Positions 37,003-47,118 of a stretch of DNA of 64,000 bases are shown here, piece after piece (position 1 is the stretch's first letter; each line of letters begins with the position of its first letter). A program made the translations under genes and the position numbers. A model generated the notes under the pieces. The model did not search any database. It was not told the DNA's origin and worked only from the letters and a program-made list of their open reading frames with translations. The stretch is from Escherichia phage dune. The stretch lies in the sequence record MN850636.1. One strand, given 5' to 3'.

Positions 37003-37803
37003 TTAGTGTAGTTGCTCAGCAGACTCTTTTTCAGCCATAGCTGAGAGTTGCTTCACAAAATCATCACCGAAGTTAATGCGTAGTTTCTCTTCAATGATGG
37101 AAGCACCAATGTTCACCAAAACATCATTGATTGCTTGCATACTGACGCCACCAGTCATCTCTTCAATAAACTCAATACTCACACCCATCATCTGTGAAAG
37201 TTGGATTAGTGCAACGATATTCATCATCGTAGAGATAGCTGGAATCATCAGTGCAACTTTCACCTGAAGTGGTTCTATATCAGCTACAGAGTCATTTTCA
37301 ACAGCTTCTTCCAAAGAATCTTTGGTTTGCTGGATAATTTCTTGGATTCGTGGGTTTAATTCTTCTACGCCCCAATCAAGTTTTTCATATCGTGAAAGTT
37401 TCTCTTCCATGCGCTTCTCAAGAACAGCCATAACAGCACTCGTTGATGAGATAAGCGTATCAATAATGAAATCAGTGTCCTTAGTCAGCAACAGCTCCTT
37501 ATCTTCGTCTGACATCCTGATATAGTCATTTCTCTGCATCTCATAAAAAATGAACTCTGCAAGAGCATCAACACCAACCGCAATAGATGCCAGAGCAAGT
37601 GTTTTGTCGCAAAGCATCATGTTAACCTGTTCTGCAAAAGCATCGTTATCAGACTTGTCTTTAGGCAGATTGTAGCTTGCAGGCATAAACTGTTCTGTAT
37701 AGTTGTTACCACGAAGAATCATAGCCATGCTTTCTACGGCATTGATTAAAAATGCTTCGTCAATACCTTTTTCTTCAAGCATCTTTTCTACATCGATATT
37801 CAT
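37003..37803 (-). CDS. Hypothetical protein
   Basis: 266 aa ORF. Confidence 0.45.
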   Translation of the reverse strand: MNIDVEKMLEEKGIDEAFLINAVESMAMILRGNNYTEQFMPASYNLPKDKSDNDAFAEQVNMMLCDKTLALASIAVGVDALAEFIFYEMQRNDYIRMSDEDKELLLTKDTDFIIDTLISSTSAVMAVLEKRMEEKLSRYEKLDWGVEELNPRIQEIIQQTKDSLEEAVENDSVADIEPLQVKVALMIPAISTMMNIVALIQLSQMMGVSIEFIEEMTGGVSMQAINDVLVNIGASIIEEKLRINFGDDFVKQLSAMAEKESAEQLH

Positions 37804-37804
37804 A

Positions 37805-38227
37805 TTATTTCTCTCTCAGTTGGTTAAGTTTCTTTCTAGAACATTTTAAGTTTTCAGATGAAGAAAAGTCAAGTGTCTTTTCAGAACGTGGATAATAGTG
37901 CCTATCCCAAGAAGTTTCAACATCGTTAATCAGTGACGCTAGATTACACAGGTCTGTACCACTTTGCAACCTCTTTTTAAGAGAATCTAGTAAAGCAACT
38001 GTGTCTTTAGCTTTACGTCTCGCTGTAGCAACATCTTTCATATGCTCAAATACAGAGCATTTTAAGTCATCTTCATAGTTTTCAGACAACTCTATTTCAT
38101 GTTGTATATCAACCATTCTCCTGTGATGGTGAGCATATTCCCGTTGAGCAGCAATGTCAAGTTCTTCCAACTTCTGCAAAGCTCTAACAAAGTCAGCTAT
38201 GTCTGGGTGAACAAACATTTTCTGCAT
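37805..38227 (-). CDS. Hypothetical protein
   Basis: 140 aa ORF; first gene of the leftward transcription unit. Confidence 0.45.
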   Translation of the reverse strand: MQKMFVHPDIADFVRALQKLEELDIAAQREYAHHHRRMVDIQHEIELSENYEDDLKCSVFEHMKDVATARRKAKDTVALLDSLKKRLQSGTDLCNLASLINDVETSWDRHYYPRSEKTLDFSSSENLKCSRKKLNQLREK

Positions 38228-38484
38228 GTAAGCCTCTTTTAAGTAACTATTAAGTTTTAATCTTTTATCTTAACGTATTCTATACGTTATACTTTAAAGC
38301 TTTTTAAAAGCTATTAAATAATCTTTTAAGAGTTTTAAAGTATCTGTATAGTTAAACTGTTAAGTAACCTTTTAAGTAAAAACCCACTTCGCAAAGATTA
38401 ACACCTTGTCAAGTGTATTGTCAACTTGCTTTTTATAATTTTTTGCAGTAATGTATGAGGTTAATGATTTTAGAGGGAGTAAAA
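38228..38484. promoter_or_regulatory. Divergent AT-rich regulatory region between leftward and rightward gene blocks
   Basis: Genes diverge here; repeated TTTTAAG / CTTTTAAGAG motifs, TTGTCA and TATAAT hexamers present but with non-canonical spacing. Confidence 0.45.
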
Positions 38485-41184
38485 ATGGAAAACGTAGATT
38501 TTAAGAACTTACATTTAGTTGGTGATACAGAAACTGATGGTTTACTCCTTGAGTTCACTAAAGTTCACGTAATGGCTTTTGCAGACTATAAATCTGACGA
38601 TGAAGAGCCACCTGTATGGGTCTTCACAGATGAGCCTATCCTCGGTCACAAGTACACTAAGTACATTAAGGGTGGTTTACGTGAAGGTGTTGAGTTTGCG
38701 TTAAAGGCAAAACGACTTTGTATCCATAATGGTCTCGGTTATGACTGGTGGGTTTTCAATCACATTGCACCGGATTTATGGAACTTTGATAATCCAAAAT
38801 GTAAGCCGTGGAGTAATTTCTTTCAGGACTCTCTTATCCAGTCTCGTGTTCAGTGGATGGATAGACCAACTCCAAAGGGTTATAAAGGTGCTCATGGTTT
38901 GGCTGCATGGGGTGCTCGTGTTGGTGTTCGTAAGCCAGAGATTGAGCATTGGGGTGTGTGGAATGCAGAAATCTTCACTCGTGTTGTAGAAGATATTCGT
39001 ATTAACGCCAAAACTAAACGGGCACTTGATAATGAGTATCTCAAGCTTAAGAAGTGTGGCATAGACACTTATGAAACCTACATGCGAGCTAAAGAAACAT
39101 CTTTCTGGATGAGTCAACAAGCTATCAATGGTTGGAAAGCTGATAAAGAGCTTATGGAGTTCCATGTAAAGGAACTTGACAAGTTGACTAATGAGCTTGC
39201 TTCAGAGGTTGAACCACACCTTCCTCCAACTATTAAGACCAAAGGTAAAGTCACTGGAGAAGAGTTTGCAAAAGCTTGGAATGAGTATGTTGAAACATTT
39301 GGTCATGCAGATGGACTGAAGAGAATTACCAAGTACCCTAAAACAAAGTATCGTCAGCAGGTACGTAACGGTGAGATGCAGACATACGAAATCAAGCCAT
39401 TTGGTAAGCCAACTACAAAGATTTTTAACATTGAAAAGAGAAATTGCTATACACCAACCAACTCTGTAACTGGTGAGGAGTACAAGGAAGGCTTTGTAGC
39501 AATGAAGGATGCTCGTGCAATTTGCAATGAGTTGAACGCAAAGATTGGTAAGAAATGCAAAGACTGGAAGCCAGTAAAAACAGTCAAAACTGTGAAGTAC
39601 TATAACAGCCACGTTGTTAACCACTTTGAGCTTGAGTCGAGTCGCTACACAGGTTTGATTGATGCACCATATACACCAATTGAGTTTGAAGTTTCCCGTA
39701 TGACTCAGGTAGCAGTTGTTAAAGACTACTTGAAATCAGTTGGTTGGATTCCAGATGACTGGAACTACAAGAAAGACTCAGATGGTCGCCCTGTCAAAGT
39801 TTGTCGTTTCAAAGACAATAAAAAGATGATTACAAAACATCCTAAGTGGCAGGAAATGGTTGAGCGATGTGGTTTGAGCTATGTTGAACATGAAGGTGTA
39901 CAGTACATCGAGCATAACTGGTCTGTGAAGAAATACACAGATTTGCTTGAACCTTGCTTAATCCGTACTTCACCAAAACTTACTGAATCATCTTATGATA
40001 CGATTGAAGGTGAGCTTGGACAGAAGATTGCTAAGTACTATACTTTGATGCACCGACGCAGAACTATTGAGAACTCAAAGGATGATGAAAAAGGTTGGTT
40101 GAACCAGATTCGTCCTGATGGTCGCCTTAGTGCTGGTGCAATGGTATTTGGCACTTCAACTGGACGTATGACACAATATGGTATTGTAAACGTACCGTCT
40201 GGTGCTGCTGTCTATGGGGAACCAATGAGGGCAGTGTGGATTTGTGAAGAAGGTACTAATGTTGTCTCTGTAGACATGAACTCAGCCCAGCTAGTTCTCC
40301 TTTGTAACTTTATGGGTGACAAAGACTTCACCAAAGCGGTAACGCAAGGTAAAGAAGAGATTGAGTTTATTCGTCAAGAAGATGGACGCTATTACTGCAA
40401 ACATTTTGATGAGTACCTAAACCCAGAGATTGATAAGTACCTTCGCTATGACTCTGAGAATGACCTGTACGTTGTCTATTCAGGGACTGATGCACATACA
40501 CTGAATAGTATTTACTTTAGCTTGAATGATGAGCAGGATATCTTGACTTGTCGAGCTACTCAGGATGAGAATCTTCTTCATGAGATTAGCAAAGGTCGTA
40601 AGAAAGCTAAAAATGGTATCTATGCACTACTGTTCGGTGCAGGTGATGAAAAGTTTGCTAAAACTATTAAGGCAGCCACTACTCAGGAAGGTGCATTAAC
40701 TAAACAGACTTACTTTGTGCGTTTGCCAAAGATTAAGAAGCTGCTAGATGACTTGGAAGCTGACTACAAAGCAACTAAAAAGGCACTTGAAGAGGTGTTT
40801 GGTAAGACTGCTGCAATCTCTAAAGGGGGTTTTGTAAAGGTTGCTGGAGCTTGGTTGTGGTGTAAATCTCCACATAAGTTGTTGAATTATTTGCTCATGG
40901 GTTCGGAAAGTCAGATTCAGAACGAGGCAATTAACCTTGCTTGCCGTCGTATGATTGACGAAGGTTTGATGAAGTTGAACGGTCGCAAACCAGCTATAGG
41001 TGCTCGTTTATTGTGCTCCTATCACGACGAGACGAGTTGGGAATGCCCAGAAAGTATGACGGCAGAGGTGAAGGCTGTCACTGATTGGTATTACGGGCAA
41101 GCCTCTAAGAACTTAGGACTAAAGAGTGAAACACTGGTAACTGGTACTGGTAAGGTTGGTAAATCGTGGTTGGAAGTGCATTAA
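38485..41184 (+). CDS. DNA polymerase, family A, with 3'-5' exonuclease domain (start moved to ATG at 38485)
   Basis: GAGGGAG RBS before MENVDF; Exo I motif VGDTETDGL; palm-region blocks. Confidence 0.85.
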   Translation: MENVDFKNLHLVGDTETDGLLLEFTKVHVMAFADYKSDDEEPPVWVFTDEPILGHKYTKYIKGGLREGVEFALKAKRLCIHNGLGYDWWVFNHIAPDLWNFDNPKCKPWSNFFQDSLIQSRVQWMDRPTPKGYKGAHGLAAWGARVGVRKPEIEHWGVWNAEIFTRVVEDIRINAKTKRALDNEYLKLKKCGIDTYETYMRAKETSFWMSQQAINGWKADKELMEFHVKELDKLTNELASEVEPHLPPTIKTKGKVTGEEFAKAWNEYVETFGHADGLKRITKYPKTKYRQQVRNGEMQTYEIKPFGKPTTKIFNIEKRNCYTPTNSVTGEEYKEGFVAMKDARAICNELNAKIGKKCKDWKPVKTVKTVKYYNSHVVNHFELESSRYTGLIDAPYTPIEFEVSRMTQVAVVKDYLKSVGWIPDDWNYKKDSDGRPVKVCRFKDNKKMITKHPKWQEMVERCGLSYVEHEGVQYIEHNWSVKKYTDLLEPCLIRTSPKLTESSYDTIEGELGQKIAKYYTLMHRRRTIENSKDDEKGWLNQIRPDGRLSAGAMVFGTSTGRMTQYGIVNVPSGAAVYGEPMRAVWICEEGTNVVSVDMNSAQLVLLCNFMGDKDFTKAVTQGKEEIEFIRQEDGRYYCKHFDEYLNPEIDKYLRYDSENDLYVVYSGTDAHTLNSIYFSLNDEQDILTCRATQDENLLHEISKGRKKAKNGIYALLFGAGDEKFAKTIKAATTQEGALTKQTYFVRLPKIKKLLDDLEADYKATKKALEEVFGKTAAISKGGFVKVAGAWLWCKSPHKLLNYLLMGSESQIQNEAINLACRRMIDEGLMKLNGRKPAIGARLLCSYHDETSWECPESMTAEVKAVTDWYYGQASKNLGLKSETLVTGTGKVGKSWLEVH

Positions 41185-44319: not shown

Positions 44320-44660
44320 GCAGCATAAACCAACGGGTACTCACCAGCATCACTTAAGAGTCTTTTAAAAGGGTTTTTAAGTGATGTGTAGCTCGGTCAG
44401 GTATGGTGCGGTGGTGTAAGGTGGTGTCAGGTGTAGTATGGTGCTGTGATGTGAGGTATGGGTAGTTAGTCTCAGCTACATTAAAATGAGACTCACCTTT
44501 TTAAAAGGCCTTTTAAGAGGGTCTTTTAATGAGGTGGGGTGGTGTAAGGTGGTGTAAGGTCTGGTTCGGTGTGTCGCGGTAAGGGTGGATGGTAGTAGCC
44601 ACGTTAAAAATCTACCAAGTTTCTAAAGAGTCTTCTGTTGAGGGTTCTTTACAAACAACT
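44320..44660 (+). repeat. GT-rich/hairpin composite repeat array 1 (G+T tracts, conserved-loop hairpins at 44468-44493 and 44591-44616, conserved roughly 40 nt AT-rich element at 44496-44535)
   Basis: Top strand nearly C-free within GT tracts; units repeat in a second array at 45758-46145. Confidence 0.6.
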
Positions 44661-44674
44661 TAACAATCAACTAA

Positions 44675-45280
<606 letters not shown>

Positions 45281-45282
45281 TT

Positions 45283-45723
45283 ATGAATACAAAAGCATTA
45301 GCAGCAAAGTTCAGTTACGGTGACACTGTATCACATTCTGAGATGGACACCTTCTTAGGTATTGTGAAGCCAACTTATCAAGGTGACATTGTTAAGTACG
45401 AAGATGAAATGAAGGCTTACGCACTGACACGGTTAAATCGACTTGAGAAGTTTATTGAGAAGCTTCTTAAAGAAGAGAAGATTTATCTGGTTGCTTCAAT
45501 GGGTGTTGGTTATCGTGTGGTTGAACCTAAGCATCAAGCAACTATTGCAAAACGCAAAATGTCTGGTAAAATTGGTCGTGCTTTAAAGCAAGCCACTCAA
45601 GCGATTGAGAATGTGAACACTATGGCGCTTAGCCATCAAGAACGTTCACGACTGATTGAACAGCAAAACCACTTAGCTGCTATGAAAGCTAACATTAATA
45701 AGCAACGTAGAAAACCTTTCTAA
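45283..45723 (+). CDS. Hypothetical coiled-coil protein
   Basis: 146 aa ORF, tightly coupled to upstream gene. Confidence 0.5.
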   Translation: MNTKALAAKFSYGDTVSHSEMDTFLGIVKPTYQGDIVKYEDEMKAYALTRLNRLEKFIEKLLKEEKIYLVASMGVGYRVVEPKHQATIAKRKMSGKIGRALKQATQAIENVNTMALSHQERSRLIEQQNHLAAMKANINKQRRKPF

Positions 45724-45730
45724 GTTGACT

Positions 45731-45757
45731 AGGTAGCCTCTTCGGAGGCTCCTTTTT
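45731..45757 (+). terminator. Rho-independent terminator (AGCCTC-TTCG-GAGGCT plus TTTTT)
   Basis: Tetraloop hairpin with downstream T-run. Confidence 0.6.
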
Positions 45758-46145
45758 AAAAGGTCTTTAAACAGGGTCTTTTAATGAGGTACGGCGCGGT
45801 TAGGTAAGGTCTGGTAGGGTAGGGTGAGGTTTGGTAAAGTGCGGGTAGTTAATCGGAGCTACATTAAAATCCGATTACATCACTTAAGAGTCTTCTAAGA
45901 GGGTTTTTAAGTGATGTTCGGTAGGGTCTGGTAGGGTAAGGTCTGGTCTGGTAGGGTCTGGTAGGGTGAGGTATGGGTAGTTAGTCTCAGCCACATTAAA
46001 ATGAGACTTACCTTTTTAAAAGGTCTTTAAACAGGGTGTTTTAATAAGGTGCTGTATGGTGGGGTAAGGTAGGGTTAGGCGAGGTCAGGTGAGTTTTGGT
46101 ATGGAAGGATGGCAGTAACCTTATAAAAAATCTGCCAAATAAGCT
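45758..46145 (+). repeat. GT-rich/hairpin composite repeat array 2 (hairpins at 45851-45876, 45983-46008, 46110-46137; conserved element at 46010-46050)
   Basis: Same unit architecture as array 1; hairpin stems differ but loops share ACATTAAAAT. Confidence 0.6.
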
Positions 46146-46613: not shown

Positions 46614-46826
46614 ATGGCTCTTAAAAAGTTACATCCCAGAAGCGGTTATGGTAAGATAATTGACGATACAGACGGCTTTACAGTCTTTACAGTTATCTGT
46701 CAAGATGATTCACAGATTGAAAAGGCTCTTGATGATTATCTTAACGATGAACGTGAAAAGGTCAGAGCTACAAACATAGACTCATTAATTGATACTTCAC
46801 GTAAACGGAAGAAGAAAGATGAATGA
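46614..46826 (+). CDS. Hypothetical protein
   Basis: 70 aa ORF. Confidence 0.4.
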   Translation: MALKKLHPRSGYGKIIDDTDGFTVFTVICQDDSQIEKALDDYLNDEREKVRATNIDSLIDTSRKRKKKDE

Positions 46827-47118
46827 GGTTTTTGACCCTTATGCCCCACAAGATGATTGGGAGGCTGATAGAGAGGCTGAAATGGAGAGTTATATTTGTC
46901 CAATGGATGTAGACGAAATGAGAGACTTCGTTGCACATCGTTTTAAGAGAGAGATTAAATCCAGAGGTCTTTCTCAAGAGCAAGTTGCTAAAATTTGTGG
47001 TATCTCTCAGGCTCGTGTATCCAACATAATCCACCTCACTGGGAATGTTTCCCTTGAGTATATGTTGGAAGTATGTGAAAAATTTGGTGTTAATTTTAAT
47101 TTAAGGTTGGCAGATTAA
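46819..47118 (+). CDS. Putative HTH DNA-binding protein (start moved to MNEVF)
   Basis: LSQEQVAKICGISQARVSNI helix-turn-helix-like segment. Confidence 0.4.
   Translation: MNEVFDPYAPQDDWEADREAEMESYICPMDVDEMRDFVAHRFKREIKSRGLSQEQVAKICGISQARVSNIIHLTGNVSLEYMLEVCEKFGVNFNLRLAD

Follow-up and report, generated by a model that had tools for sequence, protein, structure and literature searches.

The early promoters of phages T7 (A1-A3) and T5 are read within minutes by the unmodified host RNA polymerase, occur as several near-identical copies per genome, and combine a TTGACA hexamer with a spacer of 17-18 nt, a -10 hexamer of the form TAnnnT and an A-rich upstream region. In phage phi29, one type of phased binding array, served by the proteins p6 and p4, is found both at the ends of the genome and at the divergent early promoters in its centre, and p6 recognises a 24-bp bendability pattern, not a sequence word. 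Side-by-side binding also shuts the promoter in the cases of ParR on parC (11-bp repeats), omega on heptad arrays and MetJ on 8-bp met boxes, where short (7-11 bp) degenerate tandem repeats overlap or follow the promoter. At the primary origin of T7 (phi1.1A/B), an AT-rich stretch with CTTAAG-type words comes immediately after a promoter, and related 7-mers (CCTAAAG, CTTTAAG) form arrays with a spacing of about 11-13 bp beside the terminal repeat. To our knowledge, the function of the T7 CCTAAAG arrays has not been settled.

We analysed a window of 64,000 nucleotides from Escherichia phage dune (MN850636.1), which belongs to Felixounavirus (97% identity to Felixounavirus genomes), and focused on the whole intergenic control region at 38228-38484 (26% G+C), the counterpart of the interval between gene 96 (DNA polymerase) and gene 97 of Felix O1. 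This gap resembles the T7 and T5 early promoters in its TTGACA hexamer, spacer, TAnnnT -10 hexamer, A-rich upstream region and recurrence within the genome, but it differs from them in its doubled -35 hexamer (TTGACA-N6-TTGACA) and weak -10 hexamer (TAATCT), in a partner -35 hexamer that abuts at 1 bp, and in an array of short words from about +10, counted from predicted starts. The likeness to phi29 lies in one type of array that occurs at the genome ends as well as at the divergent early region, and in the proposal that a multimeric nucleoprotein complex represses or switches early promoters. The elements in the gap are 8-bp words every 10-13 bp, in contrast to the p6 pattern, and whereas replication of phi29 is primed by protein at the genome ends, this phage carries direct terminal repeats together with a T7-like replisome. 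Like the T7 primary origin, the gap has a promoter followed directly by an AT-rich stretch with words, and the polymerase and primase-helicase are related to those of T7; however, the T7 origin carries T7 RNA polymerase promoters and primase sites, whereas the gap has a predicted host promoter and no such sites, and the words here read CTNTWNAG. The ParR, omega and MetJ arrays are contiguous or strictly 11 bp apart, unlike the array in the gap, which also contains intervals of 20-45 bp, and no ribbon-helix-helix protein was identified in this phage. Our preferred reading, which we hold tentatively and at slightly short of an even chance, is that the gap is an early divergent control region of a Felix O1-like myovirus, read by the unmodified host sigma70 RNA polymerase, together with a phased protein-binding array that serves as an operator or architectural site.

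The leftward gene beside the gap (37805-38227, minus strand) encodes a helical protein of 140 aa, the gene-97 homologue (gp97), which in every lineage is the first gene past the word-bearing leader and which is 44-47% identical in Hena2 and Wc4. The limits of this gene and of the gap were given correctly in a preliminary description made from the window. The leftward block also encodes a dNMP kinase, a primase/helicase and an exonuclease. On the right, the DNA polymerase gene begins with a Shine-Dalgarno sequence (GAGGGAG, 38473-38479) and a conserved ATG at 38485 (together 38473-38487, plus strand); its open reading frame opens at 38455, where an in-frame ATG is not kept in Mooglevirus. The genes diverge at the gap in every Ounavirinae genome examined, which bears out the preliminary description of a divergent control region, and divergent early promoters between genes 96 and 97 had already been proposed in the 2010 Felix O1 genome paper, which found none (PMC3185647). 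That study also found no phage RNA polymerase or RNA polymerase-modifying genes, and its RT-PCR detected transcription of Felix O1 ORFs 96, 101 and 105 within 5 minutes (PMC3185647). The leftward block had been described as middle genes, but it consists of replication genes, and the RT-PCR places these ORFs among the early transcripts. Open reading frames of at least 20 aa were absent from the gap except for those running into a flanking gene. Our literature search for transcription start, RNA-seq, footprint or binding data from Felix O1-like and other Ounavirinae phages found none, nor any description of the words; the main text of the Bas63 knockout screen contains nothing on the gap, and a search of viral contigs for more diverse relatives returned the same genera only.

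The predicted leftward promoter is the best sigma70 site on either strand of the gap. It has a TTGACA hexamer at 38419-38424 (minus strand), which is invariant across Felixounavirus, Suspvirus and Mooglevirus and carries an in-silico promoter annotation in NC_028825 and MZ726792, followed after 18 nt by TAATCT at 38395-38400 (minus strand; TAGTCT in Moogle and Sf15). The site matches 9 of 12 consensus positions, with A2 and T6 of the -10 hexamer present, and the first, second and sixth -10 positions (T1, A2, T6) are invariant in six genomes. This suggests a leftward transcription start near 38388. The score of TTGACA-N18-TAATCT (11.4 bits) is reached by 3.9% of shuffles, which counts against the score taken alone. 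Across lineages, TTGACA-N17/18-TAnnnT is present at the equivalent place in all ten Ounavirinae genomes (at least six lineages), ranking first on the minus strand in nine of them and second in Zyzzx, and it lies 148-168 nt from the gp97 start in nine genomes and 303 nt from it in Zyzzx. The hexamers are invariant while the spacer drifts, and within the genus the only variable columns of the promoter are in the spacer (38415-38416). A standard promoter scan requires 4 of 6 matches per hexamer and TAATCT has three, so the site is missed by such a scan. We conclude that the leftward promoter is, by prediction, a canonical host-type sigma70 promoter.

A second TTGACA (38407-38412, minus strand) sits in the spacer of this promoter, and no -10 hexamer was found 16-18 nt downstream of it. 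Upstream of the distal hexamer is an A-tract region, CAAAAAATTATAAAAAGCAAG on the minus strand (38425-38446), which is UP element-like; the AAAAAGC adjoining the -35 hexamer is kept in six genomes and the remainder varies, and a test for curvature of the A-tracts found no significant AA/TT periodicity at 10-10.5 bp. The preliminary description had noted TTGTCA and TATAAT hexamers that were not at sigma70 spacing and had taken them as a hint of phage-specific promoter recognition. The hexamers are present (TTGTCA at 38406-38411 and 38418-38423, TATAAT at 38434-38439), but the TTGTCA pair is the reverse complement of the two perfect minus-strand TTGACA hexamers, the distal one of which is 18 nt from TAATCT. 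TATAAT lies within the A-tract region; Suspvirus and Mooglevirus have TGAAAC, TGAAGA or TCAAAA in its place. The TTGACA-N18-TAATCT arrangement is kept in all lineages. The region can be explained without a phage RNA polymerase or sigma factor.

A module consisting of an A-tract and a double TTGACA occurs three times per genome, and the leftward promoter belongs to one of these copies. The doublet (TTGACA-N6/7-TTGACA) recurs at 2501-2519 in the window and at 69459 and 79717 in Bas63. The paralogous module in the window (2440-2551, minus strand) comprises an A-tract, TTGACAATACCCCTTGACA (2501-2519), TAACTT and the words CTAAAAGG, CTTAAAAG and CTTTATAG. A-tracts precede both paralogous modules, and words trail all three double-TTGACA modules.

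The rightward promoter is weak by consensus and its position cannot be fixed from sequence. The most likely candidate is TTGCTT (38426-38431)-N17-TAATGT (38449-38454) on the plus strand (38426-38454), with a putative start near 38461 and a leader of about 24 nt. Both hexamers are conserved and the 17-nt spacer is variable across six genomes; however, the site has 6 of 12 matches and 6.0 bits, which is the level of chance (the mean best score of shuffles is 8.5), and TTGCTT overlaps the leftward A-tract, so its conservation may be borrowed. An alternative, TTTAAG-N16-TATAGT (38325-38352, plus strand, with its -10 hexamer at 38347-38352), would face the leftward promoter. It scores 6.1 bits, is found in all six close genomes and is annotated as a promoter in MZ726792, but it lies inside the word array and its conservation therefore does not discriminate. 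PMBT37, Zyzzx and Hena2 have stronger sigma70 sites 26-30 nt ahead of the first rightward gene, at a position that the TTGCTT-N17-TAATGT candidate matches; in Wc4 the distance is 76 nt. The first rightward gene in Hena2 and PMBT37 is an HNH gene or a small open reading frame upstream of the polymerase.

The leader of the leftward promoter contains an array of 8-base words at 38236-38376 (named here on the plus strand). CTTTTAAG occurs at 38236, 38323 and 38369, with further copies CTATTAAG at 38247, CTTTAAAG at 38292, CTGTATAG at 38344 and CTGTTAAG at 38357, and copies that match less closely at 38300 and 38332. Read along the sense strand of leftward transcription, the words are CTTAAAAG, CTTAACAG and similar, with the consensus CT[T/A/G][A/T]A[A/C/T]AG. 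Exact CTTTTAAG is found three times on the plus strand of the gap against 0.05 expected, and CT[ATG]T[AT][ATC]AG has seven matches, all on the plus strand, against 0.32 expected; neither count was reached in 5000 dinucleotide shuffles of the gap (P<2e-4). The repeated TTTTAAG-type motif noted in the preliminary description is thus real and far above chance. The seven words lie on one strand as direct repeats conserved as sites, and the starts of the 'CT' words are periodic at 11 bp (P<0.0005), with an actual spacing of 10-13 bp that is looser than a strict helical repeat.

Position and spacing of the words are fixed across lineages in which the surrounding sequence is otherwise unalignable. 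Counted from the predicted leftward start, the first words are at +13/+25/+38 in Felixounavirus, +8/+21/+33/+45 in Wc4, +10/+21 in Hena2 and PMBT37, and +11/+23/+34/+46 in Zyzzx. The start of the words at +8 to +13 and their recurrence every 10-13 bp in all lineages are, as far as predicted starts allow, the new observation here. Word cores are invariant at 33 of 35 positions, compared with 56 of 87 in the linkers (P=5.6e-4), and substitutions within words keep to the consensus, e.g., CTTTTAAG to CTATTAAG to CTGTTAAG. Within the array, an inverted repeat, TAACGTAT-TCT-ATACGTTA (38271-38289), is maintained by a compensatory change in Moogle and Sf15 (ATGTAT...ATACAT). Its centre is the -10-like TAGAAT (38277-38282, minus strand), 49 nt before the gp97 start, and Hena2 and PMBT37 have strong proximal leftward promoters at a comparable place.

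Words of the same family mark a second locus. They fill the window from 1 to 1482 on both strands, with about 28 in the gene-free terminal region, and across the whole Bas63 genome only the gap and a 1.6-kb non-coding region have at least five words per 250 bp; the latter region contains the direct terminal repeat (PMC4837284). CTTTTAAG occurs 28 times in the window against 5.6 expected and is the commonest 8-mer in its non-coding DNA. The link to a TTTTARGGTCT motif proposed in the preliminary description proved loose: the 11-mer is absent from the gap, and what remains is that the gap words belong to the family filling 1-1482. The GT-rich arrays of the window showed no enrichment as clusters of T7-type primase sites (3 per array). 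Since the terminal region carries words on both strands, a role at the level of DNA is favoured.

The main rival to an early control region with a protein-binding array is a transcription-activated replication origin of the T7 or T4 oriF type, which we consider unlikely. A strong promoter would fire into the AT-rich and readily unwound leader, the transcript or an R-loop would prime the T7-like DNA polymerase, and the words would be origin-specific sequence. The phage encodes a T7-type polymerase and a gp4-type primase-helicase, the gap lies between their two operons, and the predicted promoter is followed directly by a leader of 23% G+C over 161 bp. An unwinding element requires AT-richness alone, yet here conservation extends to particular word positions; there is no known initiator protein, and 38228-38484 contains no T7-type primase site ([GT]GGTC, GTGTC) on either strand, a consensus that may not be that of this phage. 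The cumulative GC skew has its minimum at the gap, but this turn is also the place where gene orientation changes, and a further turn, at approximately 50 kb, again falls where genes flip; because skew tracks gene orientation, it is not independent evidence for an origin. In T7, similar words (CCTTAAGG, CTTTAAG, CCTTAAG) occur from +7 in the AT-rich region after phi1.1B, CTTAAAG and CTTAAAAG occur after phiOL, and the T7 word family is densest beside the terminal repeats, with the primary origin as a tied third-ranked window, which parallels the two-locus pattern here. The exact word pattern of Felix O1-type phages forms no cluster in T7, however; the pattern of termini plus origin appears there only with a broader word family, the origin signal is weak after nested hits are merged and its window then ties with a coding window, and T7 mRNA leaders, too, often carry similar words. 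The three promoter-plus-word modules per genome recall the primary and secondary origins of T7.

We regard it as quite improbable that the words act in RNA, with the A/U-rich leader of approximately 160 nt and its repeated CUUAAAAG and CUUAACAG binding a protein or the ribosome and serving as a standby or enhancer site, as a signal for stability or antitermination, or as a translational operator comparable to the UUAAA-rich leader of T4 gene 32. Relative to transcription, the words point the same way in every lineage and in each of the three modules, the final word overlaps the gp97 Shine-Dalgarno sequence (CUUAAAAGAGG), and similar words precede the Shine-Dalgarno sequence of several other genes; on the other hand, the same words occupy the terminal-repeat region on both strands. 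The leader folds modestly better than shuffles (z=-2.2), and one small hairpin keeps its pairing through a double change, but the covariation term is negligible (-0.36 kcal/mol), comes from 3 of 40 pairs and is explicable by two or three substitution events. A scan of 37900-38800 against Rfam 15 found nothing relevant, the sole match being a chance-level snoRNA within gp97, whose 23 bits fall short of the gathering score of 42. We also considered and rejected the neighbouring gp98 as an autoregulating single-stranded DNA-binding protein in the manner of T4 gp32; gp98 is acidic and helical, lacks an OB-fold and has no relatives in the PDB.

Phage-specific recognition, through a phage sigma factor or activator-dependent promoters of the 'middle' type in which the words would be activator boxes replacing the -35 hexamer, seems less probable again. 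The array does contain two good -10 hexamers without a -35 hexamer (TATAGT, plus strand, 38347-38352; TAGAAT, minus strand, 38277-38282), but the words stand in different registers relative to the two, at -36 to -29 and -29 to -22. In favour of this reading, the TGCTT ahead of TAATGT looks like the core of a T4 MotA box, whose consensus is (a/t)(a/t)TGCTT(t/c)A with its centre at -30. The last base in the gap, however, is T and not A, TGCTT (38427-38431) starts 22 nt before TAATGT compared with about 19 nt in T4 middle promoters, approximately 15 bp separate it from TAATGT (from 38449) compared with 11-13 bp, and its spacing is that of a sigma70 -35 hexamer. A canonical sigma70 promoter accounts for the strongest conserved hexamers, about 28 words lie in the gene-free terminal region, and the Felix O1 genome paper reported no RNA polymerase-modifying genes (PMC3185647).

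Among seven Felixounavirus genomes, 7 of 257 columns of the gap vary. Part of this within-genus conservation may reflect recent shared ancestry of the segment, since it extends to the synonymous sites of gp97 (13 of 141 third codon positions vary in gp97, compared with 316 of 900 in the polymerase gene). Although the region is rich in A and T and a single base separates many of the words, we find it very improbable that the words lack a specific function and simply reflect shared ancestry and the AT-richness of non-coding DNA, given counts never reached in dinucleotide-preserving shuffles, word position and spacing that persist where the polymerases are 55-63% identical and the gaps unalignable, and core positions conserved above the linkers.

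Under the preferred reading of an early control region with a phased array, the right end of the gap would hold two promoters arranged back to back, with 1 bp between their -35 hexamers. Gene 97 and the operon of dNMP kinase, primase-helicase and exonuclease would be transcribed from the leftward promoter through the leader of about 160 nt, and the DNA polymerase operon from the weaker rightward promoter. A putative phage-encoded, sequence-specific protein would bind the words side by side, in a repressive or architectural role; once bound, it would act as a roadblock for the distal promoter, so that early transcription is throttled or switched when the first minutes have passed, and would possibly help the -10-only sites embedded in the array. 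It would also bind the much larger arrays of the terminal-repeat region. A bolder version, which we find doubtful, is that the words (CTNTWNAG) are the sites of one putative Ounavirinae protein that coats the three double-TTGACA leaders and the terminal-repeat region and ties early shut-off to the start of replication, to concatemer processing or to both. Such a protein would be p6-like but sequence-specific, and might also explain the T7-like CCTAAAG arrays.

No word-binding protein was identified among the candidates, an HTH_3 protein and gp97. The HTH_3 protein (46819-47118) is the only clear HTH protein nearby; as a universal word-binder it is weakened because it is missing from three lineages that have words (Kolesnikvirus, Wc4 and Zyzzx). 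gp97 co-occurs with the words in every lineage. Its AlphaFold model (pLDDT 72) is a helical hairpin, and it was not recognisable as a DNA- or RNA polymerase-binding protein: Pfam and PHROGs were uninformative, and its PDB and BFVD matches are to its own family only.

Felix O1-type phages are widely used in Salmonella typing and biocontrol, and Bas63 of the BASEL collection is among them. For these phages, the analysis gives a predicted, conserved host-type promoter pair where the 2010 genome paper could find none, and a three-copy promoter family with a word array as a cis-element that also marks the genome ends. If no single phage protein binds the words, the gap would be an ordinary early promoter region with an AT-rich leader; if one does, that protein would be a new regulator and would connect early transcription with the ends of the genome.

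The gap at 38228-38484 (26% G+C) and its flanking genes lie where the preliminary description had placed them. The 5 kb around it matched 259 phage records, nearly all from Felixounavirus and sister genera, with 97% identity to Salmonella phages DaR-2019b and vB_Si_DR094 and 96% to E. coli phage JohannRWettstein (Bas63). On the minus strand to the left of the gap, the matching records encode a 140-aa hypothetical protein (37805-38227; the Felix O1 gene 97 product, gp97) and a 266-aa protein, followed by a dNMP kinase, a primase/helicase and an exonuclease. The plus-strand genes to the right encode DNA polymerase (Felix O1 gene 96), an HNH endonuclease and small ORFs, followed by DNA ligase, DHFR and thymidylate synthase. 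The ATG at 38455 that opens the polymerase ORF is not conserved in Mooglevirus; the ATG at 38485, preceded by GAGGGAG, is conserved. The leftward genes had been called middle genes, but they are early replication genes, as transcripts of Felix O1 ORFs 96, 101 and 105 are present by 5 minutes (PMC3185647). The same 2010 paper proposed divergent early promoters between genes 96 and 97, detected nothing resembling a host promoter there, and reported finding neither a phage RNA polymerase nor RNAP-modifying genes (PMC3185647).

Two annotations at this locus deserve comment. The 266-aa protein (37003-37803, minus strand) is named "minor tail protein" in many records via PHROG 4251. It is very acidic, has a helix-prone sequence and belongs to the early replication cluster, and searches for Pfam and PDB relatives found none; its naming as a tail protein seems questionable. 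Several Felixounavirus records (L27, REP5-12, pSJ21 and JLBYU28) annotate the polymerase as two CDSs and match 38485-41184 in two pieces with ~265 extra bases, which suggests an insertion in their polymerase gene that is absent from this window.

The TTGTCA and TATAAT hexamers of the gap had been described as lying off sigma70 spacing. The two TTGTCA copies are the reverse complement of a minus-strand doublet, TTGACA-ATACAC-TTGACA (38424-38407), and TAATCT follows the distal TTGACA after 18 nt. The TATAAT is part of an A-tract upstream of the leftward -35 box (CAAAAAATTATAAAAAGCAAG on the minus strand) and reads TGAAAC, TGAAGA or TCAAAA in Suspvirus and Mooglevirus. The proximal part of this tract, AAAAAGC, is conserved in six genomes. 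Using a simple position-weight score, TTGACA-N18-TAATCT (inferred start ~38388) reached 11.4 bits and was the top site on either strand (best plus-strand site, 7.0). As 3.9% of shuffles scored as high or higher, the sequence by itself suggests a promoter rather than establishing one, and comparison between genomes gives the stronger evidence. We scanned ten gaps (two Felixounavirus, Suspvirus SUSP2, three Mooglevirus, Pectobacterium phage Wc4, Kolesnikvirus Hena2, Salmonella phage PMBT37 and Hafnia phage Zyzzx) from genomes with polymerase identities down to 55%. TTGACA-N17/18-TAnnnT was the first-ranked minus-strand site in nine of the ten and the second in Zyzzx, and it lies 148-168 nt upstream of the gp97 start in nine genomes (303 nt in Zyzzx).

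The best candidate for the polymerase promoter is TTGCTT-N17-TAATGT on the plus strand (38426-38431 and 38449-38454), singled out by its pattern of conservation: TTGCTT and the -10 box (as TA[AG][TG]GT) are invariant in six genomes, with a freely variable 17-nt spacer. It scores only 6.0 bits in Felixounavirus, and its -35 box overlaps the leftward promoter's A-tract. Three distant genomes have clearly better sigma70 sites, which end 26-30 nt upstream of their first rightward gene: PMBT37 (TTGACT-N17-TACTAT), Zyzzx (TTGCAA-N17-TACTAT) and Hena2 (TTGTAT-N18-TATGAT, with an extended-type TG). This gene is an HNH gene or small ORF upstream of the polymerase in Hena2 and PMBT37. The Wc4 site (TTGACC-N17-CATACT) ends 76 nt upstream of the gene. 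The opposing -35 boxes abut, with 1 bp between them in Felixounavirus and Hena2 and 5 bp in Wc4 and Zyzzx, so that the two sites stand back to back. A second rightward candidate, TTTAAG-N16-TATAGT (plus strand; -10 box at 38347-38352), is annotated in MZ726792 and would face the leftward promoter.

The gap is rich in a short word, as had been noticed. Exact CTTTTAAG occurs three times (0.05 expected) and the degenerate form CT[ATG]T[AT][ATC]AG seven times (0.32 expected), all on the plus strand; either count was reached in 0 of 5000 dinucleotide-preserving shuffles. Word starts have an 11-bp periodicity (P<0.0005), and AA/TT phasing at 10-10.5 bp in the gap was not significant. Across the window, CTTTTAAG occurs 28 times (5.6 expected) and is the commonest non-coding 8-mer, at 8.5 times its coding density; for the degenerate word, density in non-coding DNA is 5.6 times that in coding DNA, with clusters at two sites, the gap and 1-1482 (~28 positions). 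Likewise, at least five words per 250 bp are found at only two loci in the whole Bas63 genome, the gap and a gene-free 1.6-kb stretch at 70.5-72.1 kb, the counterpart of 1-1482. A suggested relation to TTTTARGGTCT holds as far as the word family common to the gap and 1-1482, and no further, since the 11-mer itself is absent from the gap.

Counted from the inferred leftward start, in the sense-strand form CT[T/A/G][A/T]A[A/C/T]AG, the first words lie at +13, +25 and +38 in Felixounavirus, +13, +26 and +39 in Suspvirus and Mooglevirus, +8, +21, +33 and +45 in Wc4, +10 and +21 in Hena2 and PMBT37, and +11, +23, +34 and +46 in Zyzzx. The gaps of these lineages are otherwise unalignable; they share the promoter, where the words lie and how they are spaced, and the leader length (142-162 nt in nine of ten genomes, 297 nt in Zyzzx). 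Among six alignable genomes, 49 of 56 word columns are invariant versus 56 of 87 linker columns, as are 33 of 35 at word core positions 1, 2, 4, 7 and 8 (Fisher P=5.6e-4). Substitutions within words hit degenerate positions (e.g., CTTTTAAG, CTATTAAG and CTGTTAAG at one site). Seven Felixounavirus genomes vary at 7 of 257 gap columns, and at 13 of 141 third codon positions in gp97, 40 of 200 in the first 600 nt of the polymerase gene and 316 of 900 in all of it; given the low synonymous divergence of gp97, part of the gap conservation may be due to common ancestry of this segment. An inverted repeat, TAACGTAT-TCT-ATACGTTA (38271-38289), stays symmetrical in Moogle and Sf15 despite a double change, and has TAGAAT at its centre on the minus strand. 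Together with strong proximal leftward promoters ~30 nt upstream of gp97 in Hena2 and PMBT37, this centre makes possible a tandem arrangement of distal and proximal leftward promoters with the array between them, a layout shared by the module at 2440-2551.

The leftward promoter has paralogues. An A-tract with TTGACA-N6/7-TTGACA recurs at 2501-2519, in the 2440-2551 module, and occurs at exactly three intergenic sites in Bas63: 33505 (the gap), 69459 and 79717 (the gene 40/41 divergent region). Behind each promoter copy, CTTAAAAG-type words begin ~+12 to +15 from the inferred start. The paralogous modules (2440-2551, minus strand; Bas63 69459 and 79717) consist of an A-tract, the doublet, a weak -10 box and CTTAAAAG-type words, and the gene 40/41 region heads a tRNA and structural gene unit. 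At 1750-7430 (minus strand), ~10 small early genes each have a near-identical cassette in front of them: either a promoter-like TTGACA or TTGCAA-N17-TAAATT or a terminator-like hairpin, then a 5'-leader hairpin GGGGAGGGAATGACCTTCCCC and TTAAACTAGGAGATTCTAAAATG. They correspond to repeats of 57 bp and 39 bp described for Felix O1 (PMC3185647).

The second word cluster, the gene-free 1-1482, is dense in CTGTTAAG-, CTTGTTAG- and CTTTTAAG-type words at ~10-20 bp spacing. The record of Felixounavirus D4 carries an exact 581-bp direct terminal repeat that maps to 396-986, so the window crosses the genome ends (a concatemer junction); PhageTerm analysis assigned direct terminal repeats to D4 (PMC11737134). 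With the experimentally mapped 608-bp repeat of UAB_Phi87 (PMC4837284), this identifies the second cluster as the part of the genome where its physical ends lie. Arrays of CTGTTAAG/TGTTAAGA are also found at both ends of the Hena2 record. G+T-rich arrays (GGTAGGGTCTGGTAGGGTAAGGTCTGG...) at 44340-44620 and 45740-46130 flank two ORFs (44693-45723) missing from Bas63. Before each array come a hairpin-like CACTTAAGAGTCTTTTAAAAGGGTTTTTAAGTGATG and a TTTTTAAAAGG-CTTTTAAGAGGGTCTTTTAATGAGG block, and T7-type primase sites were not enriched in the arrays (three per array).

The best-supported reading, based on sequence comparison, is an early promoter pair for host RNAP with a phased, sequence-specific DNA array downstream of its leftward member, and a putative protein bound to that array. 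This protein would bind the words side by side, and the bound array could control transcription, either by forming a roadblock or by switching between tandem promoters. The position of the array directly downstream of the inferred start, and its recurrence behind all three promoter-family copies, argue for transcription control. Words on both strands of the terminal-repeat region suggest that the protein is architectural and has several tasks. Protein p6 of phi29 acts at the genome ends and at central early promoters, a likeness that we draw from the literature. Two candidate binders were considered. A 99-aa Cro/CI-type HTH protein of the rightward early operon (46819-47118, plus strand; Pfam HTH_3, E=5e-10) was found only in Felixounavirus, Suspvirus and Mooglevirus, with none detected in Kolesnikvirus, Wc4 or Zyzzx. 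The helical gp97 is conserved in every lineage, always immediately after the array, and family and fold searches gave no informative match. Neither can be assigned to the words.

The main rival is an origin of the T7 or T4 oriF type, where transcription from a promoter runs into an AT-rich unwinding region. A T7-like replisome and a leader of 23% G+C favour it, as does a parallel in T7: CCTAAAG arrays on either side of the terminal repeat, CTTAAAG and CTTAAAAG after promoter phiOL, and, within the AT-rich stretch of the primary origin, CCTTAAGG, CTTTAAG and CCTTAAG after phi1.1B. With nested words merged, however, the T7 origin window only ties with one coding window, and the exact word pattern searched in the Felix-type genome gave zero clusters in T7. 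Three points count against the origin: T7-type primase sites are absent from the gap (zero), word conservation is sequence-specific, and the GC-skew minimum just tracks gene orientation. An RNA-level role of the words is possible with less support, as their presence on both strands of the terminal-repeat region argues for action at the DNA level; activator-dependent "middle" promoters are also possible with less support. These readings and array-based control are not mutually exclusive.

Divergent promoters had been proposed here before, and two GenBank records carry an in-silico annotation of the leftward promoter. In the literature searched, we did not find descriptions of the TTGTCA/TATAAT explanation, the three-copy promoter family, or the conserved word array from ~+10 and its pairing with the terminal-repeat region. 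The gap may be a promoter-plus-operator module or an origin module.
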